Below are positions 1 through 52,797 of a stretch of 64,000 nucleotides of DNA, piece by piece. A program made the translations under genes and the position numbers. This stretch comes from a virus. Lineage: Duplodnaviria; Caudoviricetes. How positions within the stretch are numbered: the stretch's first letter is position 1; the number at the start of each line of letters is the position of its first letter. The notes under the pieces were generated by a model. That model searched no databases. It worked only from the letters and a program-made list of their open reading frames with translations, and was not told the origin of the DNA. The stretch lies in the IMG/VR virus record IMGVR_UViG_3300037851_000141, positions 224,001 through 288,000 of that record. The stretch is one strand, 5' to 3'.

Positions 1-1003
1 CCGAATATCTTGATGAATCCGCTTGTAAATTGACACGATAGATGTTACGAACCTTGACCGACATATGAGAATGGTTCTTGCCTTTACTTGAAACTGCTTT
101 TTGTACAATTCTCTTATATTCTGGATCGTTTTTATCCAGTATTTCAATTTCGGTATTCAACTCTTTATACTTAATGTCGGTGCTACTTGTATATGTTCCA
201 CCACCTACTTCCAAAGCATCTTCCATCATAGTCAACAGATCAAGTTTTTGTTGAATGATAACGTCTGTATTAATAAGATCGTTATCAGTGATTTTTCTAC
301 CTAAGTTGGCCGGAATTCTTGAATAGAACGCACCAGTAAGGGTTCTGATTTCTTGAACATCATTATCTTTTACAGCTTGGGTTAAGTTTCCAAGAATGCT
401 TTTACCGTCGCCAATTTGCTTAAAGGTTAGTACACCAAGCGGAGTTTCAAGACCGTTTGAAGTGATATTAACCGCAGAGTTATTCTTAATTGTACTTGAT
501 GATTCCCGGTATAACTGATCAACGAGTTTAGAAATTGTTGGATGAAGATTAAGTTGGATAATATTTACGTCTTTATTTTCAACCAACTTTTTCTTTTTAG
601 CTTCGGGAACTTCATCTTCCGAAACCTTATATACTTTTTGTCTGGCTTTTGGGCTTCCTACTTTAGCTTTTACGAACTGGATTTCAATATAACCCTTTGA
701 TGGGCGAACCTTTGAGTCGAATTTTGAGTTGAAAAACTTTGTCATTTCGGATTCTGTTGCTGGACCATAAACACCAACAGACCCGGTATATTCATCATCA
801 GATACTCGTCCATAATTAGTATAAACTCTGAACTTCCCGTTTGAGGAGCATTTATGTAATTCAATTGAGAAGAACTTGTTATTATTGCCGTCTGCGTTAG
901 TTTGATTGCCTATTCTATGTTCAATCACTTCATAATCAGGGAAATCTTGATTGAGAGCATCGGAGCCACATTGATGCTTCACTTCTTTCCAGTCGGCAGC
1001 CAT
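1..1003 (-). CDS. PARP-family poly/mono(ADP-ribose) polymerase, N-terminal part (WGR domain + PARP regulatory helical domain + start of catalytic domain); 3' end lies beyond the left edge
   Basis: Missing from the ORF track because there is no stop in the window. Manual translation from ATG at 1003 (MAADWKEVKHQCGSD...) gives WGR motifs NNNKFFSIELH and VYTNYGRV. Helical-domain motifs follow: LHPTISKLVDQLY, TPLGVLTFKQIGDGKSILGNL, LTGAFYSRIPANLGRK, QQKLDLLTMMED. Then KYKELNTEIEILDKNDPEYKRIV..H...VRNIYRV, matching the PARP1/2/3 segment leading into the ART fold. The catalytic triad is outside the window. Confidence 0.85.
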   Translation of the reverse strand, partial: MAADWKEVKHQCGSDALNQDFPDYEVIEHRIGNQTNADGNNNKFFSIELHKCSSNGKFRVYTNYGRVSDDEYTGSVGVYGPATESEMTKFFNSKFDSKVRPSKGYIEIQFVKAKVGSPKARQKVYKVSEDEVPEAKKKKLVENKDVNIIQLNLHPTISKLVDQLYRESSSTIKNNSAVNITSNGLETPLGVLTFKQIGDGKSILGNLTQAVKDNDVQEIRTLTGAFYSRIPANLGRKITDNDLINTDVIIQQKLDLLTMMEDALEVGGGTYTSSTDIKYKELNTEIEILDKNDPEYKRIVQKAVSSKGKNHSHMSVKVRNIYRVNLQADSSRYS

Positions 1004-1028
1004 AGGTATGTCCCCTTTTGCTGCGAGG

Positions 1029-1056
1029 ATTGTACCTTAGCTTTTCTCTTAGTCAA
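1029..1056 (-). promoter_or_regulatory. sigma70-like early promoter for the PARP gene
   Basis: TTGACT-N16-TACAAT on the minus strand, followed by an AAGGGG RBS-like element and ATG at 1003. Confidence 0.65.
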
Positions 1057-2767
1057 CCTTTTTCTTTTTTCTACCTTTACCGGCCTTTACTATTGGCGTA
1101 GCTGGTGTCTGTTCTATTTCGGCGTCTGGATTTGGTGCTGGTTCACTTTTTAGTTGTTCTTTTTCAGCATCCATTTTAGCTTTTATTTCGGCGTGTTTGC
1201 GGGCTTGTTCTTCTGCGCCAGGGTTTACCCAAGCATTATATTTTGGCAATTCTGAATCTGGAATGCCGAGTTGATTTTTATAAGCAGTAAATTTAGCGGC
1301 TATTTCTTCTTTAGTAAATTCGCCAGGGAACAGTTTATTTATTCCTTTTTGATTTGTTGCTTCTATTTGGAATTTGCCGGATGGTCGTTTATGGAGTTTG
1401 AAGTTAGCTTTACCTTGTCCTTTTAAGTCAAGTGCTATTGATGGTTCTTGTGATGTCTCGACTGGTTTAGGTGGTTCAACGATAGTATTTTCGGGACTAT
1501 CTTGTTGAGTTGGTGCTGGTGCTGTTGGTTGTATATCAATTGGATTATTATCTGTATCTTCTGGTTGAACTGGTGCTGCTGTTGGTTCAGTTTTTGGTTC
1601 TTCTGGTTTAGTAGGTTCGACTGATTTGGGTTCTAATGCTGCGGTTTCTTCAGGAGGATTAAAAACATTCCTTATTTTTTGGTCTATTGGTTTATCCATG
1701 ATTTTTGTATCAATATTAGGTTCAATTAACAATTTGGACACATCTTCTATAATTTTTGGCATTAATTCTGATTGTATATATTCTTCCAGTTTTTTAAGAT
1801 TTTCTGGAGACAGAGTTTTTATAGAAGCTTTAAGATTTGGAACAAGTTGGAATATATCATCTATTGCTGATTCGTCCATTTGAGACGTTGATAGCTTTAA
1901 TATTTGTGTTGCTATTTCTTTACGATATTTACGGATAGCCTTTTTAATTTCTTCATATTTTGGAATTTTTTGATCTTCTGGTAGATTATTCCATATTTCT
2001 TTAGCTTGTTGATTTAGGAATGGAGTTATATCTATTTGTTTTGGAGTGATTGAGAATGGTTCTTTACTTTGAGGTTCAATATTTCCCACATCTATATTTG
2101 TCATTTTTTGGAGTTTTTGTTTTATTGTTTCAGGTTTAGGTTTTTCGGTTGGAGCTACTTTAGTTGGCTCTGGTGCCGTCTTATTTATTTCATCTGGGTT
2201 TAATTCTGGAACATCGAAATCTGAAGTTGGCTCTGGTTTAGTTTCGGGTTTAGTTTCAGCTTGTTTAATATCATCAATAACAGCAGATTGAACTTTATCT
2301 ATTTGTTGTTCTACTTTATCTGCTTTTTTAGTTTCTTGATCTGGATGTACAAGTCCAACTTCGCCTTTATTTGATATGATGTTATATGATGTTTCTTTTA
2401 TTTTTTGGAAATTTTTATATGATTCTTCGTGTTCAGTTTGTGATTTTTTAGTCAGTTCTGATTTTTCTTTTAATTTCTGAACAACAGGAAGATTCTCAAA
2501 GCGAGTTTCAGCATATTTTTTTAATTCAATGTCAAGTAATTCGGATTGGAGTTGAAGTGATTTATTTTTGAGGTTGAAATATTGTTCTATATAATCGACC
2601 ATTTTTTGGAATACAGTAGCAATTTTTTCTTCAGAAACTTTATTTTTTATTTCTGGTAAAGCCATACGAACAGAATCAATAGCGCCAATAACTGATATTC
2701 CTTCATTTAATACTATATCAATGTGTTCTTCTGAGAATATTTGGTTTAGTTTATCTTTAAGATTCAT
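1049..2767 (-). CDS. Pro/Glu/Lys-rich hypothetical protein, candidate internal virion protein
   Basis: 572-aa ORF with low-complexity PEPT/KPE tracts. N-terminus LKDKLNQIFSEE resembles the leaders of 2764..3933 and 55671..56099. Second gene behind a TATAAATA box. Confidence 0.6.
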   Translation of the reverse strand: MNLKDKLNQIFSEEHIDIVLNEGISVIGAIDSVRMALPEIKNKVSEEKIATVFQKMVDYIEQYFNLKNKSLQLQSELLDIELKKYAETRFENLPVVQKLKEKSELTKKSQTEHEESYKNFQKIKETSYNIISNKGEVGLVHPDQETKKADKVEQQIDKVQSAVIDDIKQAETKPETKPEPTSDFDVPELNPDEINKTAPEPTKVAPTEKPKPETIKQKLQKMTNIDVGNIEPQSKEPFSITPKQIDITPFLNQQAKEIWNNLPEDQKIPKYEEIKKAIRKYRKEIATQILKLSTSQMDESAIDDIFQLVPNLKASIKTLSPENLKKLEEYIQSELMPKIIEDVSKLLIEPNIDTKIMDKPIDQKIRNVFNPPEETAALEPKSVEPTKPEEPKTEPTAAPVQPEDTDNNPIDIQPTAPAPTQQDSPENTIVEPPKPVETSQEPSIALDLKGQGKANFKLHKRPSGKFQIEATNQKGINKLFPGEFTKEEIAAKFTAYKNQLGIPDSELPKYNAWVNPGAEEQARKHAEIKAKMDAEKEQLKSEPAPNPDAEIEQTPATPIVKAGKGRKKKKVD

Positions 2768-18413: not shown

Positions 18414-19124
18414 ATGTCATTCAAGAATTATTTCAACAAACATCTATTATTTGAGCATGGAATAATAGTAGAACGAGAAAATGACCAAGAGTTTAGAGTT
18501 GCTATTTATTCCGAGATTGAGAAGATAAAAGAAAAAATGAAAATAGAAAACTCTTATTCAATTGATGTTGATGATTATCGGGTTATGATTATTCTCGACC
18601 CCGATTCTCCTACTGGATTTTTTACATTTACAAGAAACAAACCAAAAATTCCTGTTGTGGTTCTAAATGTTGATGGAATCTGTGAAGACCTATATAAAAG
18701 ACAAAAATTTATAGATATTATTGACAAAATGAGCGATGTCCTATTTCACGAACTGACTCACCTAATGAACTATCGTGTTGTCGTTAAACCTGGGGAAGAA
18801 TACGATAATCTAAAAAATATAAAAGGCAAATATAACAATCGGGAAGAATTCAACGCATATTATCAACAAACAGCCTCCTTATTTGAGCGGATGCTACCAA
18901 ATCTTATAAAATCTGACAACACTTTTGAGTCAGTTTATGGCGATAATGTCCAACAGTTTATCTCAAAATTCTGGAATAAACTAAATGATATAAATAATGA
19001 AATAGTTGACTCCATAGCACAAAGTAAAGTATATAAAAGAAAATGGCTAAAAAGAATATATCAGCTTTATTATGAACTAATGGACACTTATAACCGGGCT
19101 AAAGGAATAACGGTTGACTCTTAA
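18414..19124 (+). CDS. HExxH zincin-like hypothetical protein with T4 capsid-targeting-like N-terminus
   Basis: FHELTHLM plus downstream EEFNAY; starts MSFKNYFNKHLLFE. Confidence 0.55.
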   Translation: MSFKNYFNKHLLFEHGIIVERENDQEFRVAIYSEIEKIKEKMKIENSYSIDVDDYRVMIILDPDSPTGFFTFTRNKPKIPVVVLNVDGICEDLYKRQKFIDIIDKMSDVLFHELTHLMNYRVVVKPGEEYDNLKNIKGKYNNREEFNAYYQQTASLFERMLPNLIKSDNTFESVYGDNVQQFISKFWNKLNDINNEIVDSIAQSKVYKRKWLKRIYQLYYELMDTYNRAKGITVDS

Positions 19125-19148
19125 TTTTTCTTTAGTATAATTTTGGTC

Positions 19149-30461: not shown

Positions 30462-31073
30462 TCAAACCTCGTCAGAGTTAATGATTTTGATTCCGGCTTT
30501 AGTCATTTCAATAATTGCTTCATTCTCACTACCTACAGGATAATTGACACCACGGCAGGCATCAACAACAACATAGGTTTCAAAATGTTTAACAGCATCA
30601 AGAGCAGTAAACTTCACACAATAATCCGTAGCAAGTCCACAGATATAAACTTTCTTGACCCCAGCATTAAGTAAGAATGTTAATAGTCCGGTGTCATTTT
30701 TGTTATGATTGTCTTGGAATCCACTATAGCTATCAACCGTTGGATCACAGCCTTTATAAAATACTACCGGCGGCGTAAGCAAGTCTGGATGTAATTCGGC
30801 TCCTGGCGTATTTTGTACACAGTGAGCGGGCCACATCATTTGAGGTTGCCCACCTAATGTACCCATAGTAAACGGTTGAGTATTATTGTTTGCCGCAAAG
30901 CTACCATGATCCGCCGGATGCCAATCTTGAGTAGCAACAACTAAGTCATTTCTATCAAAGAATTTACGCATAATCTCATTGGCAACCGGAACGATACTAT
31001 CTCCATCGTTTACTGCTAAAGCACCACCAGGGCAGAAGTCATTTTGTATATCAACCAGAATAAGAGCATTCAT
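30462..31073 (-). CDS. pncA: nicotinamidase/pyrazinamidase
   Basis: LILVDIQNDFCPGGALAV, TQDWHP, WPAHCVQ, FYKG, YSGF, CGLATDYCVKFTALDA. Confidence 0.95.
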   Translation of the reverse strand: MNALILVDIQNDFCPGGALAVNDGDSIVPVANEIMRKFFDRNDLVVATQDWHPADHGSFAANNNTQPFTMGTLGGQPQMMWPAHCVQNTPGAELHPDLLTPPVVFYKGCDPTVDSYSGFQDNHNKNDTGLLTFLLNAGVKKVYICGLATDYCVKFTALDAVKHFETYVVVDACRGVNYPVGSENEAIIEMTKAGIKIINSDEV

Positions 31074-31624
31074 GGTGTTCCTCCTTTACTTGGCAACAGT
31101 TTAACAGAATTTTGAGCTAAGTCAACATATTTTCTAATTAAAGTATCGTGAGAAAATGCGAAGTTATATTTACTTAAATCATCAGCGTAAGCCCATTTAG
31201 CGTCAGCAACTTCAATACCATCAATATGTAAATCTGGAAGCGGATTATTGCCTAAATCAATACACATCCCATATCGTAGAGTTATATTCTGTCTATTTTC
31301 TTTTGGGTCAGTGTTCACATACCAAGGCTGTTGTAAATGTGATACAAGGATTTGCTTAAAGTCATTTATATCTAATCCAATTTCTTCATAAACTTCTCGT
31401 CGTGCTGCTTCTGGTCCAGTTTCATTACGATCTATATACCCGCATGGCACACACCACCGGCCAGGATAATCAAGAGCCTTGCCCCGCTGTTCTATTGCGG
31501 TATGTAAAATTCCATCTCTAACCGCAAGTAGAACAACGACTACAGCAACGGATCTTGACAGCCAGACTTCTCGACCGTCAGGTAATATTACTCGTTCATT
31601 AGGCTTATTATTGAATGTTGGCAT
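31070..31624 (-). CDS. NUDIX hydrolase (ADP-ribose pyrophosphatase-like)
   Basis: Nudix box GYIDRNETGPEAARREVYEEIGL; terminal FAFSH. Confidence 0.85.
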   Translation of the reverse strand: MPTFNNKPNERVILPDGREVWLSRSVAVVVVLLAVRDGILHTAIEQRGKALDYPGRWCVPCGYIDRNETGPEAARREVYEEIGLDINDFKQILVSHLQQPWYVNTDPKENRQNITLRYGMCIDLGNNPLPDLHIDGIEVADAKWAYADDLSKYNFAFSHDTLIRKYVDLAQNSVKLLPSKGGTP

Positions 31625-31632
31625 GTTATTTC

Positions 31633-33294
31633 CTATTTCCTACAGATTGGGAACCTACGACCGATACCAAACGATACTGGACTGATCTTGACGATTGGAG
31701 CAGTTTGACGACGTTTATATTCAGCTATGTTAATAATCCGAATAATCCTGTTATAGTTCTGTTCGTCAATATCATCCGACTTACGGCATTTCTTGAAGGT
31801 ATCAAAGTTGTCAATCCGTTCTTCAATATATGCTTGACAGATACGATCAAGAATAGGATACGGCAACAAACTATCTTCATCAAACTGACCAGGAGCCAAT
31901 TCAGCACTTGGTTTCTTTTCAATTATCTCAGTTGGAATATGCGGTCCAAACTTTTCATTGATATGCCGGCACAAATCAAACACTTCCATCTTGTATAAAT
32001 CTCCAATCGGATTATACCCACCGCAACCGTCAGCATAAATGGTTCCGTATCCACACGATGCTTCAGTTTTGTTCATGGTCGAAAGCATCATAGCTCCCAA
32101 ACCATTACTAAACATCATAATATTGACCATGCGAAGACGGGCTTGAATATTCTCGTCAGCAACTTTATTCCACGATGGTTTATTAGGAATCGCATCATGG
32201 AAAGCTTTAGTCATCGGATCATGGTCAATCGGAATCAAATACTCATGACAACCAAGATTCTGATGAAGTTTCTTGGCATCATTTACACTTCCTACACTAC
32301 TATAACGACTTGGCATCATAATACAATGTACATTATCTCCACCAAAAGCGAGTTTAGCGAGAGTGGCAACAAGCGCACTATCAATGCCACCACTACTACC
32401 AATTACTACCGACTTGAATCCACTCTTAGTGATATAATCCTTCATACCAAGCAGAATCATTTTTAGAGTTTCTGATACAATACCAGGATAGGTTTCAGCT
32501 TTACAGTGGTAATACTTATTTTCTAGAACAAGATGATACGAAGCTTGGTAATGTTTATCATTTATATCATCTGGATTTTCTACGAAAAGTCTAGTCCCTC
32601 GCTCGCCATATTCTGCTTGACTATGCCCGTCAAATACAAGTTCATCATTACCACCAATCTGATTGACATAAAATATATTTACTCCATAATTACTCGCGGC
32701 CCGCCGAATCAACTCCCGACGATTATTAGGCTTCATTTTAACATATGGCGAACTGTTAAGACTAAACACATTTTGTACGCCAGCATCGGCCAAATCCTTA
32801 ATGGGGTTATCTTTATACAGGTTCGATGTCCAAAGATCCTCACACACAATCAACCCACAATTCTCACCATTGATCTTAAACACACACGACTCTTTACCCG
32901 ACTCAAAATACCGTTGCTCCCAAAATACGTCATACTCTGGAAGAAGCCGCTTTTGATATGTAGTAATAATCCGACCATTCTTGACAACAGCAGCCATATT
33001 CCTAAAAGGCTTCCCATGACCACTGTAATTATTATCAACATATCCAACAATGACATTAAGGTTCTGATAATGGCTCGCATACTTGACAATCATATGGAGA
33101 TAATCAAGATTCCGATCAACAAATCCATGAGTGTAAATCAGGTCTTGAATCAGATAACCTGGAATACACAACTCTGGAAATATAACAACATCAGCTTCGT
33201 GTTGAGCAGCATAATCAATTCCATCGGTAATCTTCTTGAAATTACCAGTGAAATCGTTAGGTGTAGTGTTGATTTGTCCGATGACGACTTTCAT
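31633..33294 (-). CDS. nadE: glutamine-dependent NAD+ synthetase
   Basis: Nitrilase domain (FPEL, KRLLP.Y.VF.E.RYF, VCEDLW) fused to synthetase (GSSGGIDSAL, ENIQARLRM, NKTE, KPSAELAPGQ.DED, AEYKRRQ). Confidence 0.95.
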   Translation of the reverse strand: MKVVIGQINTTPNDFTGNFKKITDGIDYAAQHEADVVIFPELCIPGYLIQDLIYTHGFVDRNLDYLHMIVKYASHYQNLNVIVGYVDNNYSGHGKPFRNMAAVVKNGRIITTYQKRLLPEYDVFWEQRYFESGKESCVFKINGENCGLIVCEDLWTSNLYKDNPIKDLADAGVQNVFSLNSSPYVKMKPNNRRELIRRAASNYGVNIFYVNQIGGNDELVFDGHSQAEYGERGTRLFVENPDDINDKHYQASYHLVLENKYYHCKAETYPGIVSETLKMILLGMKDYITKSGFKSVVIGSSGGIDSALVATLAKLAFGGDNVHCIMMPSRYSSVGSVNDAKKLHQNLGCHEYLIPIDHDPMTKAFHDAIPNKPSWNKVADENIQARLRMVNIMMFSNGLGAMMLSTMNKTEASCGYGTIYADGCGGYNPIGDLYKMEVFDLCRHINEKFGPHIPTEIIEKKPSAELAPGQFDEDSLLPYPILDRICQAYIEERIDNFDTFKKCRKSDDIDEQNYNRIIRIINIAEYKRRQTAPIVKISPVSFGIGRRFPICRK

Positions 33295-33297
33295 GGG

Positions 33298-33696
33298 TTA
33301 TACCTTTACTTCAATCCAGGGTGTGTGAACCAATATTTGCCCGTCTTCCTTCTTTGTTGTTCTCGCTATGACTTTACACTTGAAACCAAATTTACGTAGT
33401 TTCTTACAAAGTGGTTCAAGTTTCTTGGCTGCCTTTTTGTATTCATATAATTCTTTTTCCGGTGATAATTCAATTGGGTCATGATTTGGATTCTCGCACC
33501 AAGGTCGATAATTATAAGATCCAAAAGAACTCTTCCAATAGATATCAAGTTCAACACTATCATGCTGAAACTGATCATCCGAAAATTTATTAAGAATGAT
33601 TTGTAATGCGGTTCCAAGTTCAGTATCAGTAATTTTATCAATGTACTCATCTGACCATACTTTAGTTAGATTCTTTATGATTTTGGCAATGTTCAT
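33298..33696 (-). CDS. hypothetical protein inside the NAD operon
   Basis: 132-aa ORF translationally coupled to pncB; no HxGH motif. Confidence 0.65.
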   Translation of the reverse strand: MNIAKIIKNLTKVWSDEYIDKITDTELGTALQIILNKFSDDQFQHDSVELDIYWKSSFGSYNYRPWCENPNHDPIELSPEKELYEYKKAAKKLEPLCKKLRKFGFKCKVIARTTKKEDGQILVHTPWIEVKV

Positions 33697-34877
33697 AGCT
33701 GTTCTCCAAAGTGAATGTGTTTCATAATCTTAACCATAGTTTCATCACCAATGGCTTTAGTTGGCGTATCCGATAGCTTGACGACAGGAATACCATTAAC
33801 ATCCCGCAACTTGATAACCATATTCAACGGCTTGCTCTTTTCATTTACATTACTCTCTTTATTGAAATTTGATGTGAAAAAAGTACCAATTCCAAACGAA
33901 CATCCAATTTTACCACGGCAATATTCATTTATTTTTACCGCTTTTTCAACATCTAATCCATCACTGAAAATAATAGTCTTCAACTGCGGTTCAATCCGAA
34001 GACTCTTATAGTGAGCAATAATCTTATCAGTGAAAACAAAAGGATCACCCGAATCATGGCGAACCGAATCCCACAGTTTAGCCTTATCAAGCGTGAAATC
34101 TTTGAGGAACGAATCTATACCATAAGTATCCGGCAGCATCGTTCCCAAAGCACCTTGATAGACCTTAGCCCAATTTTCCATCAGATACTTATTAGGACGA
34201 TTCATGCTCTCCAATGCCGCAGTAGCTTGGATTAACTCATGGGCCAGAGTACCAATCGCCCTAACTCCATATTTCATAGCCAGATATACATTACTGGTTC
34301 CTACAAATTCGGCATATCGCTTCATTTCATGTACAACAATATCTTGAGTATCAAAGTTTCTACGACGACGAGTACCAAAATCAGCATATTTACAGCCACC
34401 ATATGCCAACTTCCTAGCATTATCCCTAGCTAAACCAATCTGATCATTCATATTCCAATCAGTATCAATCATCTTGAAATATACTTCCGAAATAATAGCC
34501 ATCAAAGGCACTTCCCATAGAATTGTATCTCGCCATTTACCAGCAATAGTCAGTTGAAGTTGGTCGTCATCATCCAACCAAACATGAACTTGCTTAGGAT
34601 TAAACCTAAATGCCGCTAAATACTGCCTAAACGTGACAGGAAGGAACGGTATAGTATTCTTGATAAAGTCATATTCGGTATCTTGAAGCCTCAGATTCTC
34701 CATCAAGTTAATCTGACGCTCAATCTCATCCCTAGCCTCTTTTGTAAACTTCATACTCTTATTGCGATTATTGAAACTATAAGTAACATTAGTTTCGGGA
34801 TACAGCGAGAGAACAAACCACATCATCGTGAATTTGTATAAGTCATTGTCCAGCAAGCTCGTAATGACCTGTTCCAT
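33693..34877 (-). CDS. pncB: nicotinate phosphoribosyltransferase
   Basis: LLDNDLYKFTM, DFGTRRR, GTSNV, GTLAHE, LPDTYG, VRHDSGDP, FSDGLD, FGIGT, VIKL, VKLSD...KA. Confidence 0.95.
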   Translation of the reverse strand: MEQVITSLLDNDLYKFTMMWFVLSLYPETNVTYSFNNRNKSMKFTKEARDEIERQINLMENLRLQDTEYDFIKNTIPFLPVTFRQYLAAFRFNPKQVHVWLDDDDQLQLTIAGKWRDTILWEVPLMAIISEVYFKMIDTDWNMNDQIGLARDNARKLAYGGCKYADFGTRRRRNFDTQDIVVHEMKRYAEFVGTSNVYLAMKYGVRAIGTLAHELIQATAALESMNRPNKYLMENWAKVYQGALGTMLPDTYGIDSFLKDFTLDKAKLWDSVRHDSGDPFVFTDKIIAHYKSLRIEPQLKTIIFSDGLDVEKAVKINEYCRGKIGCSFGIGTFFTSNFNKESNVNEKSKPLNMVIKLRDVNGIPVVKLSDTPTKAIGDETMVKIMKHIHFGEQL

Positions 34878-34912
34878 GGCGCACCACCTTTCTTACGACG
34901 ATATTATAATAA

Positions 34913-35497
34913 CTAAATGGCAAGTGTCAAGGTCGGCTTTACAACAGCATGCGGATCAATCGAAGGCACCCAGCGCAAATCACCAGTCTTTTTAAGCAAC
35001 TGTTCGCAACTAAGATCATTATTCTGGAATTGGCTGGCTGGCGTCTCGTCAACCTTTACCAGATGATAGCCAAGATCCGCCACAGCCTTTTGCGCAAGTT
35101 CTAAAGTGATAGCACCATGAGTAAAGGTATATCCGAGCTTCCAGGCATCTTCATTAGACGTATAAGCCACTTCAACACAGGGTCGGAACAGACGATTCAT
35201 AACACCAGCACGACTTGACCATGGACCGCGAAGAAGCTTAGTCGTTCCATCAACAAGAGTTATCTCAAATTCCCGACCACCAAACCCTTCACCCGGTTGA
35301 TTATAATAGAAGAAGTGACAGAATCCATCAAGTTCAGCAAAATAACGGCCAGAATTCTCCTGATAACGTAAAGCCTTATAGTTAGGTTCCTTATCAACTA
35401 AAATAAGAAGATCAGGCTCATTCATAAAGCCGTGATTCCAGTCGATCTTTGCCTTGAGGATGTTCATGATAGGTTCCTTCCTTGTTGGTTCACACAT
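34913..35497 (-). CDS. hypothetical protein, first gene of the NAD operon
   Basis: ORF, likely start near 35467; promoter TTGACA-N15-TAGAAT at 35496-35522. Confidence 0.65.
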   Translation of the reverse strand: MCEPTRKEPIMNILKAKIDWNHGFMNEPDLLILVDKEPNYKALRYQENSGRYFAELDGFCHFFYYNQPGEGFGGREFEITLVDGTTKLLRGPWSSRAGVMNRLFRPCVEVAYTSNEDAWKLGYTFTHGAITLELAQKAVADLGYHLVKVDETPASQFQNNDLSCEQLLKKTGDLRWVPSIDPHAVVKPTLTLAI

Positions 35498-35570: not shown

Positions 35571-35855
35571 ATGAATAAAGTCAAAGAAGTATCCGATTTA
35601 TATGGTGTTGTATTTAAGCAGTATTTCTGGACCAATGCTGATGAAGAGAATGAAGCGTTTAGTTATGTTGAAGAATACGTAGAAAGACCAGTTGAAACTC
35701 TTATATATCATTCAGATAGCCCAAACCACGATGCTGTATTTTATGTAATCTCAAATATAATTGAAACTGTTATAGGTAATCCAATTTTCTCAGATAGATA
35801 TAAACACACATATAAAACCAATAAACAACATATCCTAAAGGTCTTACATGATTGA
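35571..35855 (+). CDS. small protein, first member of the array with shared C-terminus
   Basis: Ends YKTNKQHILKVLHD. Confidence 0.6.
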   Translation: MNKVKEVSDLYGVVFKQYFWTNADEENEAFSYVEEYVERPVETLIYHSDSPNHDAVFYVISNIIETVIGNPIFSDRYKHTYKTNKQHILKVLHD

Positions 35856-36510
35856 ATTACATCAAGATTTATTAGAAGAACAAGATAAACCTACATATTA
35901 TCTCGATAAAAAATTAATAAGCGGCCAAACCTATATACAAGATAATGAGAATACTTGTGGATTTTTAGCAATTATTAACGCATTATCATATTTTAATAAA
36001 CCTATTCCCAATATTAAAAAACTAAGAAAATTAGCTAAAAAATATCAATTACAATATGGTTCATCGCCACAGGATATACAAACATTATCACATGAGTTAG
36101 GCATTCATTTATCAAAAATTAAACCCGACAAGAATCAAATAATTAATGCCGTAAATAAAGAATTTCCAGTTTTAATTAGTATGAGATTTAGCTTGAATGC
36201 TCCGCATATTCCAGAACCAAAATATGATACAAAAATAATCAATTTCAATGTAGGCATTAATAACATTATTTCGTTTTTATCTTCAGAACAAAATGAAAAA
36301 TTAAAAGAAAACTGTATTGGCGAATTCCACACAACCTTAATAATCGAATATGATAAAAATATTGATAAATTTTTATGTCTAAATATGTTTCATAATTGTT
36401 GGATGAATTATAATGAGTTTATATTTGATGTTGGACCAAATGGTGAAAAATGGGACACAACGTTTATATGTACAACAACTCCAATAAAAATAACCGGATT
36501 TCCATTATGA
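35848..36510 (+). CDS. papain-like (C39-like) peptidase
   Basis: QDNENTCGFLAIINAL (Q..C), FHTTLI (H), CLN. Confidence 0.55.
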   Translation: MIELHQDLLEEQDKPTYYLDKKLISGQTYIQDNENTCGFLAIINALSYFNKPIPNIKKLRKLAKKYQLQYGSSPQDIQTLSHELGIHLSKIKPDKNQIINAVNKEFPVLISMRFSLNAPHIPEPKYDTKIINFNVGINNIISFLSSEQNEKLKENCIGEFHTTLIIEYDKNIDKFLCLNMFHNCWMNYNEFIFDVGPNGEKWDTTFICTTTPIKITGFPL

Positions 36511-37481
36511 TTAAAGGATTTGTACCTCGTTATCCATATAAGTGTAATAGGAAGGATGATATTTTTCCTATTATTGACGTTGAACGTGTATTTGGAATGA
36601 TCTTAAAATTTCCAAAATTTAAGAACCCATTATTACATTATCATAGATTTCCAGCATTATATGGGTGCGGATTATTATCATTAGTATGTCAAAAAATAAT
36701 GGAATCTCAAAATACGGTAAATAAGAAACATATTCTAAAGGTGCTACATGATTGACGGAATCGACGGCCTAAATCATTACCAGAGACTCACTTATAATAA
36801 CACTTTACGTCAATTATGTAATCCTTTAGATGCTATAGGTGGGATAATAGGTTCACCACATGTTTTTATGATGAGTTCAAAAATTATGTATAAATTGTGG
36901 CCAACACTTTTTGTTTATGGAGTATTCGGAACAATATATGTAAACTTGGAAAAATCTCAAAATAAGGTAAATAAGAAACATATTCTAAAGGTATTGAAAA
37001 ATGATTGACGGCGTTAGATTTCGTGATCGGACATGGGTTGTTGATGATAGGTTTATTACTCTTCGTGAAGTTGATAATGTAATTGGATGGGTATGTCTGC
37101 CTCCAAAATTTAAGAACCCGCGATTTAACTTTTTCACATTCCCTCTTTTATATGGATACGGAATAACAGCAACGATATATAGCAAAATAATGGGATCTCA
37201 AAATAAGGTAAATAAGAAACATATTCTTGAGGTACTACATGATTAATCAGGCTCGGGAACTTGCGTTGCTTTCATTTGATTCTAAATGTCTTTGTTTATG
37301 TCGTGATTTAGAGCAAGTTAGAAGAATTGTTGGTTTTGTTTCTCCTTATTCAACGGCTATTGTATTTCGGATATTCCCACACTTAAGAGGATTTGGAATA
37401 GTGTTCGAAATATATAAAGTTCTTGAAAAACAACAAAATAAGGTAAATAAGAAATCCGTCCTTGACTCTCTAAAAAACTAA
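36507..37481 (+). CDS. tandem array of four paralogous 80-86-aa genes (36507-36755, 36748-37008, 37001-37246, 37239-37481)
   Basis: Each ends (S/Q)QN(K/T)VNKK(H/S)(I/V)L(K/E/D)(V/S)L. Three share FPxLxGxG. Consecutive genes overlap by 8 nt. Confidence 0.75.
36701..37460 (+). repeat. about 50-nt direct repeat at about 245-nt period (AAAATAAGGTAAATAAGAAACATATTCT(A/T)(A/G)AGGT...ATGATT)
   Basis: Copies near 36705, 36955, 37195 and 37430; partial copy near 35815. Confidence 0.75.
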
Positions 37482-37511
37482 GGTAAAATATCCGTACATA
37501 AAGGAATTCCC

Positions 37512-38626
37512 ATGAAACCATTCAAGACTATCTTATTATCAAAAGAAGATTATAACGATACATTATCACAGAGTATTTACACCTCATATAATCTTATTGG
37601 TGTGATGCTTGAAGAAGATAAAGTCCAAATTGTAAAGAATCGTTTAGGCGAATCCGCAGTTGTTACTTTAGACAGATGGTATGAACTTGTAAAAAATGGC
37701 ACAAAAGAATGGAATCTGCTTCAAAAGGGCATTAAACTTCCAGATGCCGAAGCAATGCTTATTTTCAAGAAAGGTGGTAATGCTGTTATTGTAGCTAATC
37801 AACATGAAAACCCAAACTCAAGCGATCCAACTTTATCAATATTATGCCAAGAGTGCGACTTGTGCCATTGCGAGTGTCATTCTTTATATATTGATCCTTC
37901 TCATGGTGAATATTCTGGATCAACTCTCTGTTTTACTTGCTTAAAAAATATAATAACGTTACATAAGGAAAATGTATGACAATAGAAGTAATCATCATTT
38001 CATCTATCATTATTCTTGCGGCTCTTATATACATTATCAACATGGTACTATATAAGAATCTTTACTATAAATTCTTAGAAACCCACGGTAATGATGCTTG
38101 GTTTGATTCAGAACAACGTAAAAAGATGAACGGCTTTCTTGGTGCTATTCGTTATATATTAGGTAAAAAGAAATAAATATTGACTCTCTCATAAGCTAAA
38201 ATAGAATATCAGCCCATAAAGGACGCCATCATGTCACCATTCAAAACCTTGTTGCTACCAAAAGACTTTGACTTGAAAACTTTAAGGTTTGACCAAAGTA
38301 TAAAGTCTCATCTTATTGGTTTGCTATGTGAAGAAAATAAAGTCCAAATTGTAAAATCTCGTTATAGCAATGCTTACCCATTGGTTACTTTAGATGAATG
38401 GTATAATATTGTAAAAACTGAAACAACATATTGGAATAATGCCCAAAAACGAGAAGATAAAAATATTCAACCAACGTTAACAATACGCGAAGGTCTTATT
38501 TGTGATAATTGTAAAAAACAGTGTAATAATCCTTGTATTGAATTGACTAATAATGACGGTGAAAAAACTACCCACTGTCTCGACTGCTTAACAAATATTC
38601 TCCATGTCTTTAAGAACTACAAATGA
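37512..38626 (+). other. two paralogous genes (37512-37979, 38231-38626) flanking a small TM gene (37976-38176)
   Basis: Both begin M(K/S)PFKT(I/L)LL, share LIG..(L/C)EE(D/N)KVQIVK.R and a C-terminal CxxC..C...CxxC finger, and each has its own TTGACT-N16 promoter. Confidence 0.65.
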
Positions 38627-41803: not shown

Positions 41804-42415
41804 ATGATCCGGTTTCTTGGCAAGTTACCTCAAGGGAAGATTTATATTGCGTTATCTGGTGGTGCTGATTCAATGGCAGTATTATCATTTCTAAACAACG
41901 GTAATCGTCAAATTGAGTGTCTTTATTTCAATCATGATACTAAACACGGTCAAGATGCCGAATATTTTGTAAAAGGTTATTGTTCAACTCATAATATTGG
42001 TTTACATATTGGTCAGATTACTAAAGATAAAGAAAAAGGTCAGAGTGAGGAAGAGTATTGGCGTTTTCAGAGGTATGATTTCTTTTCTAAGTTTACTGAT
42101 GCTCCTATTGTTATGGCTCATCATTTGAACGACTGTGTTGAGACTTGGATTTTCACGGCATTACATGGTTCACCGCAATTGATTCCTTATATGAACGGCA
42201 ATGTTATTCGGCCATTCTTAATTACGCCAAAGAGTGAATTTTTACGTTGGAATGAACGGCATAATGTTCCATTTATTCAAGACGATAGTAATTTTGATAA
42301 TGTACATATGAGAAATTATATTCGTAACGTGTTGGTGCCAAATAGTTTACATGTTAATCCTGGTCTTGAAACTGTGATTAAGAAAAAGCTATTGTCTCAA
42401 GCCGTTTCTTCTTGA
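41804..42415 (+). CDS. tilS: tRNA(Ile)-lysidine synthetase, N-terminal catalytic domain only
   Basis: ALSGGADSM, FNH, RYDFF, AHHLNDCVET, IRPFL, DDSN...RNYIRN. Confidence 0.88.
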   Translation: MIRFLGKLPQGKIYIALSGGADSMAVLSFLNNGNRQIECLYFNHDTKHGQDAEYFVKGYCSTHNIGLHIGQITKDKEKGQSEEEYWRFQRYDFFSKFTDAPIVMAHHLNDCVETWIFTALHGSPQLIPYMNGNVIRPFLITPKSEFLRWNERHNVPFIQDDSNFDNVHMRNYIRNVLVPNSLHVNPGLETVIKKKLLSQAVSS

Positions 42416-44179: not shown

Positions 44180-44776
44180 ATGAAATTCAAGTTTTTTGCT
44201 ATTGACCAACCACTGTATGATGCTTGGCGAAAATATTTAGGAGATTTAGATTTCATTTCAGTTCATTACGAGAATATATTTAATCAACAGACGGATTGTG
44301 TAGTTTCGCCGGCCAACAGTTTTGGATATATGGATGGTGGAATAGACGCATTATATACAAGATATTTTGGTCCTAAACTCCAGCAAAGACTTCAGCAAAC
44401 AATACAATGTAGTTTTCGTGGTGAATTATTAGTTGGTCAATCGATACTTTTAGAAACTGGCCACGAAAAAATACCTTACATGATATCGTCACCAACAATG
44501 AGATTACCAACTAAATTGCCAAAAAATACTGAAAATCCTTATTTGGCTATGCGAGCAACATTAATAAAATTGCTACAGAATCCAGATAAAAATATATCAA
44601 CGGTTAGTATTCCTGGTTTTGGTACTGGTGTCGGTGGTGTTGACCCTGTATTATGCGCTGCCCAGGTTCGTAGAGCAATTGATGATATATGGTTAGATAA
44701 GTTTACGTTTCCTACGAATTTTAATGATGCTGTATTACCATTTACGAATAGAATACCGGGAGATTATAATGACTGA
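44180..44776 (+). CDS. macrodomain (ADP-ribose binding/hydrolase) protein
   Basis: DCVVSPANSFGYMDGGID, GELLVGQ, ISSPTMR, VSIPGFGTGVGG. Confidence 0.88.
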   Translation: MKFKFFAIDQPLYDAWRKYLGDLDFISVHYENIFNQQTDCVVSPANSFGYMDGGIDALYTRYFGPKLQQRLQQTIQCSFRGELLVGQSILLETGHEKIPYMISSPTMRLPTKLPKNTENPYLAMRATLIKLLQNPDKNISTVSIPGFGTGVGGVDPVLCAAQVRRAIDDIWLDKFTFPTNFNDAVLPFTNRIPGDYND

Positions 44777-51545: not shown

Positions 51546-51573
51546 TTGACTCTACATAAATAGCTGATAGAAT
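51546..51573 (+). promoter_or_regulatory. sigma70-like promoter of the interrupted tRNA
   Basis: TTGACT-N16-TAGAAT about 20 nt upstream of the tRNA 5' end. Confidence 0.7.
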
Positions 51574-51592
51574 ATGCGCGTTGAAAAGATAT

Positions 51593-51713
51593 ACCCGTGT
51601 AGCTCAGATGGCAGAGCGAGAGCCTTCTGCGGAGATTATAGGAATATATTGGGTTCGAATCCCAATCTCTGCTCCAAAGCTCTAGGTCGGAGGTTCAAGT
51701 CCTCTCACGGGCG
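51593..51713 (+). tRNA. tRNA-Arg(UCU) interrupted by a 48-nt insertion between anticodon-loop positions 36 and 37
   Basis: 5' part 51593-51628: ACCCGTG, TA, GCTC-AGATGGCA-GAGC, G, AGAGC, CTTCT. 3' part 51677-51713: AA, GCTCT, AGGTC, GGAGG-TTCAAGT-CCTCT, CACGGGC, G. Removing 51629-51676 gives a canonical cloverleaf with loop CU-UCU-AA (1:72 is an A-C mismatch). Confidence 0.85.
51629..51676 (+). ncRNA. nested mini-tRNA (acceptor stem + T-arm + UCCA)
   Basis: GCGGAGA (51629-35) pairs with TCTCTGC (51666-72); T-arm TTGGG-TTCGAAT-CCCAA; 13-nt linker TTATAGGAATATA replaces the D and anticodon arms; ends T-CCA at 51673-76. Confidence 0.8.
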
Positions 51714-51719
51714 CTAACA

Positions 51720-51756
51720 AATAAACCCATCAGCATAACAACTGGTGGGTTTATTT
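51720..51756 (+). terminator. rho-independent terminator
   Basis: AATAAACCCATCAG / CTGGTGGGTTTATT hairpin. Confidence 0.75.
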
Positions 51757-51782: not shown

Positions 51783-52736
51783 ATGCCACAAGATGATAAA
51801 GTTTATAATCAATTAAAAGAAACCTGGAAGAACATTATTCAAGAAATGTTTATCCACGGTGATCCAAATAATAAGAATGTTATAGCGTTTAGAGATAGTA
51901 TTTGGTTATTAGCGAATGATATTCCGGCATCACTTGCCAATGAGATATATAAAAAAGTAGGAATTGATATCAAGTATAATGAAGATGCTGATTTTTTGGA
52001 TTTAGCGAATGAAATAATGAATGAAAAGCCGGATGTACTTACAGGGTCTATTAATGATAAAACCTTATTAGTTTATAGTTCAGGATCGTTTACATTAGAT
52101 CCGAAGTCATCTATTCTTATCAAAAAAGTTGTACAGCATCTCAAACTCAAAAAAGTTGATTATCAGGAAATGGAAGATCAATTTACAGTTCCCAAGAAGA
52201 AAATAACTGGTCAAGTTCCAGACATAGCATATCATGGAACGTCTCTCAATTATCTCGATAGCATTTTGAGACACGGATTAGAACCAAGAGGAAGTCAAAG
52301 CAATTACGAACAACAAGGCATTTACCACGATGATAAGATATTTTTCTCAACTAGATTTGGAGAAGCAAGTCATCACGCAGATCATACAGCAGCATTGAAA
52401 CAATCTAAACCTGTTGTTATTGAGTTTAGAATTCCAGATAAAAATCTTATAACTCCAGATTATGACATTGATATCCAAAGTGGTGAAACGTTGTGGTCAG
52501 ATACAAGAGATAGCAAATCGAAACTTACCAATCCAAAGAGTCAAAGCGCAAGTCAAGAGTTTGGAATATACGGTTATCAAGGAAAAATAATACCCCAACA
52601 TTTTAGATATTTTTACATAAACTTAAGTGGGGATGAATATTCAACGCTTAAAAGCTATAAGAGATTTACATACAAACAATTACAAAAAATTATTAACAGA
52701 TATGGTGACTTAGAATCTTATTTGGATTATTATTGA
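51783..52736 (+). CDS. ADP-ribosyltransferase-fold protein (HGT-type), candidate internal virion protein
   Basis: AYHGTS....SILRHGLEP, IFFS, PVVIEFRIP; TATAAATA at 51770-51777; leader DDKVYNQLKETWKNIIQE. Confidence 0.55.
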   Translation: MPQDDKVYNQLKETWKNIIQEMFIHGDPNNKNVIAFRDSIWLLANDIPASLANEIYKKVGIDIKYNEDADFLDLANEIMNEKPDVLTGSINDKTLLVYSSGSFTLDPKSSILIKKVVQHLKLKKVDYQEMEDQFTVPKKKITGQVPDIAYHGTSLNYLDSILRHGLEPRGSQSNYEQQGIYHDDKIFFSTRFGEASHHADHTAALKQSKPVVIEFRIPDKNLITPDYDIDIQSGETLWSDTRDSKSKLTNPKSQSASQEFGIYGYQGKIIPQHFRYFYINLSGDEYSTLKSYKRFTYKQLQKIINRYGDLESYLDYY

Positions 52737-52797
52737 TACTTTAGTTGTTGATTTTAGATTCTGCTTGACTTTTATTTTTTGACTGTATAATGTGGTC

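Follow-up and report, generated by a model that had tools for sequence, protein, structure and literature searches.

A putative break-sensing PARP in a T4-like jumbo phage and its genomically coupled downstream partner gene

To our knowledge, two bacterial PARPs make PAR in vitro, and neither has a known target or physiological role. HaPARP and CdPARP are bacterial WGR-HD-ART proteins that make PAR when given activated DNA, and the substitution of Tyr for Trp at the first WGR position that they carry is the norm among bacterial PARPs, including those that are DNA-dependent in vitro (PMC5966428). Two reports on bacterial PARPs (PMC5966428; 10.64898/2026.10.17.759577) make no mention of a winged-helix partner protein. 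Phage PARPs of the WGR/HD/ART kind were noted by Perina (2014; PMC4245714), and jumbo-phage PARPs were discussed by Iyer et al. (2021; PMC7824862); our literature search found no biochemical or expression study of any phage PARP.

Here we describe a PARP locus of this kind in a phage genome. The preliminary description of the locus had presented the architecture as unusual for a phage; the WGR-HD-ART arrangement is real, but its novelty was overstated, since such phage PARPs have already been annotated and discussed. One more intact phage PARP is ordinary. The architecture is already known in phages, and what is new is a coupled partner gene, which ties the PARP to one small protein.

The phage PARP and its promoter

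The window, that is, the whole stretch of DNA analysed, is 64,000 nucleotides long and corresponds to positions 224,001-288,000 of a 331,849-bp IMG/VR virus record from a freshwater metagenome; the source genome is that of a T4-like jumbo phage. The features considered here are the following, in window coordinates.

1-1003, minus strand: PARP gene, first 334 of 470 codons (ORF listing, translation, Pfam)
1-121, minus strand: start of the ART domain, aa 295-334 of 295-468 (PF00644, 7.9e-27, 94.5 bits, cut-off 26.7)
218-547, minus strand: helical regulatory domain (HD/PARP_reg), aa 153-262 (PF02877, 8.1e-13, 49.1 bits, cut-off 26.8)
680-907, minus strand: WGR domain, putative DNA-break sensor, aa 33-108 (Pfam PF05406, 1.8e-8, 34.8 bits, cut-off 22)
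1011-1017, minus strand: Shine-Dalgarno-like AAGGGGA, 7 nt ahead of the ATG (read directly)
1029-1056, minus strand: sigma-70-type promoter TTGACT-N16-TACAAT (consensus scan, 10 of 12 positions)
44180-44776: MacroD/Poa1-like macrodomain, the only macrodomain in the phage genome, resembling Poa1p/YmdB

The PARP gene is cut by the window edge. As the preliminary description had it, an ORF from the ATG at 1003 runs off the left edge on the minus strand, with 334 codons open to the edge; the window part alone matches Pfam WGR (1.4e-8) and PARP_reg (4e-13), and the HD motifs quoted at the time are present as TPLGVL..KQI..SIL (aa 187-204) and FYSRIP..LGRK (aa 226-237). The full gene occupies positions 223591-225003 of the genome, and the 410 bases beyond the window edge contain no stop and no frameshift; the continuation supplies the ART domain in an unbroken frame, PARP_reg is supported, and in the full 470-aa protein WGR, PARP_reg and PARP all score above their Pfam cut-offs. 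The triad positions H346, Y380 and E451 lie just beyond the window edge; all three are intact and, together with Y391, invariant in 37 relatives of 26-63% identity. The sequence thus confirms a PARP with the complete WGR-HD-ART series and an undamaged H-Y-E triad.

The regulatory parts of the protein are conserved along with the catalytic ones. In the WGR domain, the same 37 relatives keep N42, K43, Y64, G65 and R66 in at least 90% of cases and show no variation at K98 and Y105, while the HD leucines L189, L204 and L257 are also conserved at 90% or more. The phage WGR domain can be aligned to those of PARP2 and PARP3, with PARP3 as its best PDB match. In human PARP2, mutation of N127, W151, R153, K179, K183 or Y201 abolishes DNA-break binding (PMC6294510); pairwise alignment places N40, Y64, R66, K94 and K98 of the phage protein opposite the first five, and the counterpart of Y201 is probably the invariant Y105, an assignment made by position, outside the alignments. 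The HD motifs TPLGvL and kSIL align with mPLGkL and ySIL of PARP1, and the catalytic motifs LFHGS, GIYAAS and NNEFIF with its LWHGS, GIYFAD and YNEYIV.

The predicted fold agrees with this assignment. The AlphaFold model (pLDDT 90.5, pTM 0.87) has HD helices at residues 155-176, 194-212, 216-229 and 247-266, and its top Foldseek matches, which span the full length, are two structures bound to DNA breaks: that of PARP2 with HPF1 at a double-strand break (6x0l_P, E 7.6e-28) and that of PARP1 WGR-CAT (4dqy_C, TM score 0.68-0.70 across about 494 columns). The solved structures most closely related to the phage PARP are the PARP1 catalytic fragment (1.4e-30) and, over residues 32-400, PARP2 WGR-CAT.

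The promoter ahead of the PARP has its hexamers at 1056-1051 (TTGACT) and 1034-1029 (TACAAT), separated by a 16-nt spacer; it lies 26 nt ahead of the start codon, and its -35 hexamer and the stop codon of the preceding gene overlap. Genome-wide, the strict pattern TTGAC[AT]-N16-18-TANAAT has 35 sites, where a Markov-1 model predicts 5.2; 22 of the 35 fall no more than 150 nt upstream of an ORF, and for the class as a whole the distance to the ORF start is mostly 20-30 nt. The partner gene described below is preceded by a promoter of the same class, and both promoters end in GGTACAAT. The PARP had been credited with an early-type promoter of its own: the promoter stands as a matter of sequence (10 of 12 positions, a genome-wide class), and the early timing is what we infer from it, the promoter being of a host (sigma-70-like) type that makes early expression of the PARP probable.

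It is most improbable that the gene is bacterial contamination or a product of mis-assembly. The nearest named cellular relatives of the PARP are bacterial, and IMG/VR classes the record as linear, without terminal repeats; yet the PARP is encoded by a single ORF, on a contig of 332 kb with a CheckV completeness of 92% that also carries a T4 Gp23 capsid protein match (E 7.5e-98) and a T4-type terminase, and its promoter belongs to a class common to the rest of the genome. Homologues are present on more than 40 further viral contigs of 100-540 kb, and relatives matched by capsid (capsid proteins 81-87% identical) likewise encode a PARP. The sequencing runs that contain the gene are DNA runs only, the sole full holder being a freshwater metagenome.

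A coupled partner gene and other neighbours

Directly downstream of the PARP, outside the window at positions 222846-223517 of the genome, lies a 223-aa gene with a conserved, predicted winged-helix N-domain and a basic, putatively AbrB/MraZ-like C-domain. This conserved gene was absent from the preliminary description.

A strict association between the two genes is evident from their genomic distribution. Homologues of the partner lie downstream of the PARP, on the same strand, at 30 of 42 viral PARP loci in IMG/VR; conversely, a PARP is upstream in 26 of 27 loci found by the partner alone, and as the 27th is cut by the contig end, this amounts to 26 of the 26 that can be tested. The arrangement is shared by bacteria, where the partner comes right after the PARP in 13 of 14 loci (Armatimonadota chromosomes and one Chloroflexota MAG). 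In four bacterial genomes searched whole, partner copies occur only beside the PARP: three Armatimonadota genomes have one copy apiece, and the Chloroflexota MAG has a tandem pair. Of 201 Armatimonadota genomes, six contain the partner, and all six are among the 13 that bear a PARP. Taken together, the genomic coupling of the partner to this PARP family extends over more than 50 viral contigs and to genomes of Armatimonadota and Chloroflexota. A partner profile gave no match at E ≤10 around the PARP genes of the cultured phages XacN1, Klebsiella 05F01 and Stenotrophomonas CM1, and the partner is therefore specific to this PARP family. Upstream of the PARP, synteny with the nearest relative is weak (E 4e-6 between a 572-aa ORF and one of 547 aa), and a 389-aa ORF has no match in that relative.

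The partner model (pLDDT 86) has a winged-helix topology followed by two beta-beta-alpha-beta-beta repeats, with structural matches to MraZ (E 0.01, probability 1.00), AbrB/SpoVT, HARE-HTH and MarR, and to AbrB/SpoVT clusters of AFDB at E 4e-4 to 5e-3. PF04014 is matched in six of 30 members of the partner family (best 1.5e-5); the copy of the phage studied here has no Pfam match. The conserved N-domain is mostly acidic or neutral (pI ~5-6) and for that reason may not bind DNA itself. A predicted complex of the PARP with this N-domain (residues 1-118) scored 0.18, the mark being 0.32, a score that speaks neither for nor against binding. The extreme C-termini of about 25 related viral partners share the pattern W..LF..QPSLFP.K, in agreement with Q1, L4 and F5 of the bacterial beta-clamp-binding consensus Q-L-x-L-F, a motif that is usually C-terminal (PMC4549789); this C-terminal motif is absent from the phage's own partner.

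Two further genes lie close by. Three genes downstream of the PARP is a match to Acb1, a possible sign of a counter-defence island, in a protein that also matches a 2',3'-cyclic phosphodiesterase model, and a GMP reductase gene lies a few kb downstream of the PARP both here and in XacN1.

The window also contains a Preiss-Handler salvage operon, 30 kb from the PARP. Of 23 huge-phage records, all of them PARP-bearing, 15 contain a NAPRTase-family gene, which lies within 26 kb of the PARP in 11 of the 15; the capsid relatives gathered for comparison were nearly all short fragments. In one distant relative such a gene is 2 kb from the PARP, and NAD+ salvage genes cluster near the PARP in several clades. 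The earlier proposal that NAD+ consumption by the PARP may explain the NAD operon thus holds as a correlation only. That these genes recur so close to the PARP suggests that huge phages set NAD+ aside for ADP-ribosylation of their own, in addition to countering NAD+-depleting defences; the PARP may use NAD+ made by the phage.

For enzymes that would reverse the modification, PF10021 (PARG) and PF03747 (ARH) gave no match in the phage genome, while their controls were matched in Deinococcus and in seven genomes, respectively; PF05028 (PARG) also gave none, but its control was matched nowhere, which makes that search uninformative. The macrodomain may serve RNA repair instead of ADP-ribose erasure. 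We considered it as a regular companion of the PARP and rejected it, since it is found in only six of the 23 huge-phage records and above the cut-off in only two.

Proposed mechanism and alternatives

We put at roughly 65% the probability that the phage protein is a catalytically competent, break-activated transferase of the PARP1/2/3 type that is probably made early and works with the downstream partner. The WGR domain would bind a DNA break through the conserved 5'-phosphate and ribose-stacking contacts; binding would unfold the autoinhibitory HD and open the H-Y-E site to NAD+, and the activated PARP would ADP-ribosylate itself and nearby proteins, probably with chains, by analogy with the bacterial PARPs. 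Transcription from the host-type, sigma-70-like promoter would probably place these events early. The 223-aa partner with which the PARP is expected to act is most likely a dedicated DNA-bound substrate, or an adaptor that places the PARP on DNA or at the replisome. The purposes suggested in the preliminary description, repair of nuclease damage or modification of defence proteins, are at this stage conjecture. The pair offers a concrete two-protein system for reconstitution, names a candidate substrate or adaptor, and makes it possible to ask directly whether the WGR-HD break switch is older than eukaryotes.

A bolder proposal, which we regard as doubtful, is that the PARP and its partner form a two-protein DNA-damage switch in bacteria and huge phages. 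The AbrB/MraZ-like domain would tether the partner to DNA, and in other lineages the C-terminal QPSLF would tether it to the sliding clamp; the break-activated PARP would modify the partner, thereby releasing or re-programming it, and transcription or replication would respond. If true, this would be RecA-LexA-like logic written in ADP-ribose and could represent a prokaryotic forerunner of PARP-chromatin signalling, and its role in the phage would be to signal that nucleases are attacking phage DNA or that host DNA is being broken down.

The H-Y-E triad is necessary but not sufficient for the synthesis of chains, as PARP3 and PARP4 are mono-transferases. It is quite possible, though on balance we do not favour it, that the phage enzyme is a PARP3-like, DNA-break-activated mono-ADP-ribosyltransferase that places a single ADP-ribose on its targets or on DNA ends. 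Consistent with this, PARP3 is the best PDB match for the WGR domain, the catalytic domain falls short of the Pfam model in length (174 residues on model positions 3-197 of 199), an Asn next to the catalytic Glu occupies the position of the PARP1 acceptor-site tyrosine, and the genome yielded no PARG but only a macrodomain of the mono-ADP-ribose or ADPr-1''-phosphate type. The architecture, without zinc fingers or BRCT, is identical to that of PARP3 and HaPARP (10.64898/2026.10.17.759577), which also fits. Against it, both tested bacterial enzymes of this architecture make PAR (PMC5966428); the full conservation of H-Y-E likewise speaks for chains.

The remaining alternatives concern the target. 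A role in host takeover like that of T4 Alt, ModA and ModB, in which RNA polymerase or translation factors of the host would be modified early and DNA breaks would have no part, has been proposed for jumbo-phage PARPs by Iyer et al. (PMC7824862) and would suit a T4-like phage with an early-looking sigma-70-type promoter. We consider it unlikely here: the triad is H-Y-E and not the R-S-E of Alt and Mod, the same two-gene module occurs in bacterial chromosomes, where takeover is needless, and relatives as distant as 26% identity keep the DNA-contacting residues of the WGR domain and the core leucines of the HD, a pattern in favour of a switch for sensing breaks that has been retained. Also unlikely, in our estimate, is a PARP whose main substrate is nucleic acid, modified, as by PARP2 and PARP3, on terminal phosphates at breaks so as to cap phage DNA ends against host exonucleases or to mark broken host DNA. 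Besides proteins, DNA is a reported target of PARP2 (PMC8190142), and the residues that contact the 5'-phosphate are conserved; sequence cannot separate DNA from protein targets, however, and the strict coupling of the PARP to a protein partner points to a function at the protein level. The break-activated, partner-coupled PARP remains our preferred reading.

Comparison with known PARPs and phage ADP-ribosyltransferases

The annotated phage PARPs of Xanthomonas phages XacN1 (BBA65562.1) and Xoo-sp13, Klebsiella phages 05F01 and FBKp34 and Cellulophaga phages phi4:1 and phi17:2 share the WGR/HD/ART architecture with the PARP described here, which is matched by PHROG 23333 at 4.8e-34; they are less than 30% identical to it, and the partner is undetectable beside those of XacN1 and 05F01. 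In a midpoint-rooted tree of 71 sequences, all of them viral, metagenomic or bacterial, the bacterial and viral PARPs interleave, with at least three label changes needed.

The bacterial enzymes HaPARP (Herpetosiphon aurantiacus) and CdPARP (Clostridioides difficile CD160) have the same WGR-PARP_reg-PARP_cat order, a similar size (47-52 kDa), the H-Y-E triad and, like the phage PARP, Tyr for Trp in the WGR motif. Identity to named bacterial sequences is nevertheless only ~26-33%, and HaPARP and CdPARP come with a PARG-type eraser, whereas none was found in the phage genome.

With human PARP2, PARP3 and the WGR-CAT part of PARP1, the phage protein has in common the domain order, fold, triad, WGR contacts and HD core leucines, at 21-28% identity to PARP1/2/3 and with a shorter catalytic domain. 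It is without the disordered N-terminal tail, zinc fingers and BRCT seen in human PARPs, and in place of HPF1 it has an unrelated syntenic partner. T4 Alt, ModA and ModB resemble the phage PARP in being phage-encoded, NAD+-consuming and, as predicted for the phage PARP, early in a T4-type phage; they are R-S-E mono-transferases that lack WGR and HD, whereas the phage PARP carries the H-Y-E triad together with what we read as a regulatory switch.

The complete PARP gene and its predicted switch

The window spans bases 224001-288000 of a single IMG/VR virus record of 331,849 bp (CheckV completeness 92%, G+C content 34.9%, 92% coding). A large terminase and a major capsid protein of T4 type (Pfam Gp23, E 7.5e-98) mark the record as a T4-like jumbo phage; the complete PARP gene was found in one sequencing run only, a freshwater metagenome. 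The preliminary description had reported an ORF running off the left edge with WGR and regulatory (HD) motifs leading into a catalytic fold. In the full record this frame continues without stop or frameshift, and all three Pfam domains exceed their curated cut-offs; with the ART domain, PARP_reg, an open frame and a full-length structural match all found, the WGR-HD-ART PARP is confirmed. Its features are as follows.

window, from ATG 1003, open at the left edge after 334 codons; minus strand; PARP ORF in the ORF listing
genome 223591-225003 (1091-2503 of L001, a stretch of the same record); minus; full PARP gene, 470 codons
aa 33-108; minus; WGR, 34.8 bits
aa 153-262; minus; PARP_reg (HD), 49.1 bits
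aa 295-468; minus; PARP catalytic domain, 94.5 bits
window 1056-1051 and 1034-1029; minus; promoter TTGACT-N16-TACAAT, 26 nt ahead of the ATG

The top sequence matches among solved structures are PARP1 catalytic fragments (1.4e-30), and PARP2 WGR-CAT, also among the best, covers residues 32-400. Phage LFHGS, GIYAAS, SLNYS and NNEFIF align to PARP1 LWHGS, GIYFAD, SANYC and YNEYIV, respectively, and the H-Y-E triad is therefore H346, Y380 and E451; across 37 aligned relatives, some as low as 26% identity, none of the three varies, nor do Y391, G347, N352 and P231. The AlphaFold model built from this alignment (mean pLDDT 90.5, pTM 0.87) matches over its whole length, by Foldseek, the structure of PARP2 and HPF1 bound to a double-strand break (6x0l_P, E 7.6e-28), as well as PARP1 WGR-CAT on a break (4dqy_C, TM 0.68-0.70). 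Compared with the Pfam model the phage catalytic domain is short, and an Asn aligns with the tyrosine that precedes the catalytic Glu of PARP1; chain and single-unit products cannot be told apart from the sequence.

Human PARP2 no longer binds a 5'-phosphorylated break stably when it carries N127A, W151A, R153A, K179A, K183A or Y201F (PMC6294510). Pairwise WGR alignment places N127, W151, R153, K179 and K183 opposite phage N40, Y64, R66, K94 and K98, of which K98 is invariant in the family, with Y64, G65 and R66 conserved at ≥90%; invariant Y105 lies where PARP2 Y201 is expected, a pairing by position only. Tyr is the commonest state of the first WGR position in bacterial PARPs, two of which, HaPARP (Herpetosiphon aurantiacus) and CdPARP (Clostridioides difficile CD160), automodify with PAR when given activated DNA (PMC5966428). 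In the HD, phage TPLGvL and kSIL align to PARP1 mPLGkL and ySIL, and L189, L204 and L257, conserved at ≥90% in the 37-relative alignment, are core-leucine positions tied to HD stability in CdPARP (PMC5966428). Because both the DNA-contact residues and the core leucines are conserved, activation by DNA breaks through HD unfolding is a well-founded inference, though still an inference.

The PARP was also said to have its own early-type promoter. A loose consensus scan of 3 kb gave 12 sites against 10.4 expected, so a consensus match alone says little; the strict class TTGAC[AT]-N16-18-TANAAT, in contrast, occurs at 35 genome sites against 5.2 in Markov-1 simulations, which bears out the promoter itself. 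Of these, 22 lie ≤150 nt upstream of a same-strand ORF, mostly 20-30 nt ahead of the start, and the class is densest at genome 162-198 kb and 223-321 kb; pattern search places examples in the window at 1029-1056(-), 19114-19141(+), 34903-34930(-), 37462-37489(+) and 38180-38207(+). The class probably marks an early or host-RNA-polymerase regulon, early timing being what host-type promoters in such a T4-like phage would be expected to give. The -35 hexamer of the PARP promoter overlaps the stop codon of the upstream gene. Just upstream of the PARP sits a 572-aa ORF (window 1049-2767, minus) with long Pro/Glu/Lys/Thr-rich low-complexity stretches; family searches with it gave no match, and it weakly resembles (E 4e-6) a 547-aa ORF three genes upstream of the PARP in the nearest relative.

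A partner gene behind the PARP

Directly downstream of the PARP, beyond the window's left edge, lies a further gene, here called the partner (L004 is another stretch of the same record).

genome 222846-223517 (L004:14846-15517); minus; partner ORF, 223 aa
genome 223558-223585; strict-class promoter of the partner, beginning 5 nt past the PARP stop codon

The PARP and partner promoter copies share the end GGTACAAT. Pfam and NCBIfam searches with the partner protein gave no match. Metagenomic contigs with PARPs of only 30-55% identity also have homologues behind the PARP, and a partner profile matches 30 of the 42 IMG/VR loci fetched with the PARP alignment, in every case on the PARP strand, downstream of a PARP and 0 to about 6 kb past its stop codon. 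In the reverse test, in which IMG/VR loci were retrieved by the partner alignment only, 26 of 27 have a PARP upstream on the same strand; the remaining locus, cut by its contig end, has just 657 bases ahead of the partner. Among 14 bacterial loci (12 Armatimonadota, some on complete chromosomes where SecA and pilin-like genes lie nearby; one Chloroflexota MAG; one Syntrophomonas) the partner follows the PARP immediately in 13. Whole-genome searches of four bacteria found no partner copy away from the PARP: three Armatimonadota genomes have one copy each, next to the PARP, and the Chloroflexota MAG has two tandem copies, both also next to it. In the phage genome the partner is single-copy. Of 201 Armatimonadota genomes sampled, 13 have the PARP and 6 the partner; all 6 partner-bearing genomes also have the PARP, where chance would predict about 0.4. 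Subunits or enzyme-substrate pairs show genomic coupling of this kind.

The conserved core of the partner is its N-terminal ~105 residues (consensus LFTxLDVSNxVK..RHRxVRDxVR..GY..T.I.V..G...A.LYHP....Y..R). In the model (pLDDT 86) the N-half has a winged-helix topology (helix, short strand, helix, helix, beta-hairpin), followed by a disordered linker and two beta-beta-alpha-beta-beta repeats. Structure searches gave weak to moderate matches, to HARE-HTH, MarR, PadR and TFIIE winged helices for the N-half or whole protein and to MraZ and AbrB/SpoVT proteins for the C-terminal half; six family members reach PF04014 (MazE/AbrB model). The N-domain is mostly acidic or neutral (pI about 5-6) and the AbrB-like half basic (pI 9-10.4). 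A large viral clade has a Pro/Ala-rich linker instead of the AbrB half, and its extreme C-terminus, W..LF..QPSLFP.K, fits Q1, L4 and F5 of the beta-clamp-binding consensus Q-L-x-L-F, which is usually C-terminal (PMC4549789); this resemblance is a lead, making the tail a candidate clamp motif only. Either the AbrB-like half or the clamp-like tail would put the conserved N-domain on DNA or at the replisome. Taken together, the most likely reading, to which we give a probability of roughly 0.65, is a predicted active, break-gated PARP that is expressed early and acts with a winged-helix/AbrB partner.

Related loci show further arrangements. The Chloroflexota tandem partners (L089:7361-8186, in the MAG locus) measure 135 and 153 aa; both lack the AbrB half and consist of a winged-helix domain and a Lys-rich tail. 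Two viral contigs, IMGVR_UViG_3300033402_000292 (L022/L029) and 3300034091_000148 (L023/L028), each carry two PARP genes ~11 kb apart, from different PARP clades, with a single partner gene between. The huge-phage contig L009 encodes a free-standing 160-aa WGR-only protein (L009:20800-21282) and a prokaryotic YEATS-domain protein (L009:17911-18624) ≤10 kb from its PARP.

NAD+ salvage and other ADP-ribose genes

A nicotinamide-to-NAD+ gene set of Preiss-Handler type lies 30 kb from the PARP (window 30462-35497, minus).

window 30462-31073; minus; isochorismatase/PncA-like
window 31070-31624; minus; Nudix
window 31633-33294; minus; glutamine-dependent NadE
listed between NadE and PncB; minus; 132-aa ORF, no assigned family
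window 33693-34877; minus; PncB
window 34913-35497; minus; 194-aa ORF with a TTGAC[AT]-N16 class promoter ahead, which may be the missing NaMN adenylyltransferase

Every ADP-ribosyl transfer releases nicotinamide, so the pathway would recycle exactly this by-product of the PARP. A NAPRTase-family gene occurs in 15 of 23 PARP-bearing huge-phage records, in 11 of the 15 at ≤26 kb from the PARP by reported coordinates and across at least four PARP clades; one 398-kb contig has NadE and PncB 2 kb downstream of the PARP, and another an NMNAT-like gene and a faint isochorismatase at 3-5 kb. In INPHARED, 13 records have a PncB homologue and 16 a PARP, and 2 have both. Since all 23 records are PARP-bearing and phylogenetically related, the association is suggestive, not proof. 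The earlier proposal that NAD+ use by the PARP may explain the operon has this correlation in its favour; replenishing NAD+ against host NADase defences is an equally good reason for it. The interpretation in the preliminary description is, overall, partly supported. Between the operon and the macrodomain gene, among small early-looking genes, stand a peptidase C39-like protein (window 35848-36510, plus) and a TilS/QueC-like PP-loop ATPase (41804-42415, plus).

Searches of the phage genome for PARG and ARH found none. Other genes of ADP-ribose, RNA or nucleotide type are these.

window 44180-44776; plus; macrodomain protein, 198 aa, the only one in the genome
window 51783-52736; plus; second ADP-ribosyltransferase-fold protein, 317 aa, motif YHGT
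L004:12563-13147 (genome 220563-221147); minus; 2H-phosphoesterase, three genes downstream of the PARP
L004:11175-12134 (genome 219175-220134); minus; GMP reductase/IMPDH-family gene, after the 2H-phosphoesterase

The macrodomain protein, not PARG-like, is closest to T. thermophilus TTHA0132, E. coli YmdB and yeast Poa1p (PDB entry 1njr), an ADP-ribose 1''-phosphate phosphatase. With no PARG or ARH found and a macrodomain in only 6 of the 23 related records, a dedicated eraser is not part of the conserved module. The 317-aa protein scores below threshold against the PARP catalytic model (5e-4) as well as Tpt1/KptA RNA 2'-phosphotransferase (8e-4); its gene adjoins the insert-bearing tRNA flagged earlier (51546-51756) and is followed by a radical-SAM gene (window 52792-53763). 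The 2H-phosphoesterase matches Acb1 (anti-CBASS) at 3.5e-9; its match to a 2',3'-cyclic phosphodiesterase model is weak. Together with the 317-aa protein and the Poa1-like macrodomain it could serve yeast-type 2'-phosphate removal in tRNA splicing or repair.

Relatives and previously known phage PARPs

A search of the protein database gave 109 PARP relatives at E up to 1e-5; nearly all have the same three domains in 430-490 aa, and contigs of 100-420 kb carry many of them. A midpoint-rooted maximum-likelihood tree of 71 viral, metagenomic and bacterial sequences places the phage PARP inside a tight viral and metagenomic clade, and the Armatimonadota, Chloroflexota and Syntrophomonas PARPs at three separate places among viral clades, requiring at least 3 changes of label. 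To judge from these placements, the PARP-partner module has passed between huge phages and bacteria on at least two occasions, in a direction that such a tree cannot give. Relatives matched by capsid (81-83% capsid identity) have PARPs only 49-54% and partners only 34-40% identical, so the module evolves much faster than the capsid gene.

The enzyme class itself is already known from phages: PARPs of Aeromonas phage Aeh1 and Cellulophaga phi4:1 were listed by Perina et al. 2014 (PMC4245714), and Iyer et al. 2021 noted PARPs in a few jumbo phages, citing BBA65562.1 (PMC7824862), which is the XacN1 gene. GenBank annotates PARPs in XacN1, Xoo-sp13, a Klebsiella phage and Cellulophaga phages, and PHROG 23333 matches the phage PARP at 4.8e-34; our literature search found no experimental test of a phage PARP. 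What the analysis adds is the strictly coupled partner, of which we found no description in the literature searched, and which offers a direct way to probe by experiment what prokaryotic and viral PARPs do. In XacN1 a GMP reductase lies about 5 kb downstream of the PARP, and the phage studied here likewise has its GMP reductase/IMPDH-family gene downstream.
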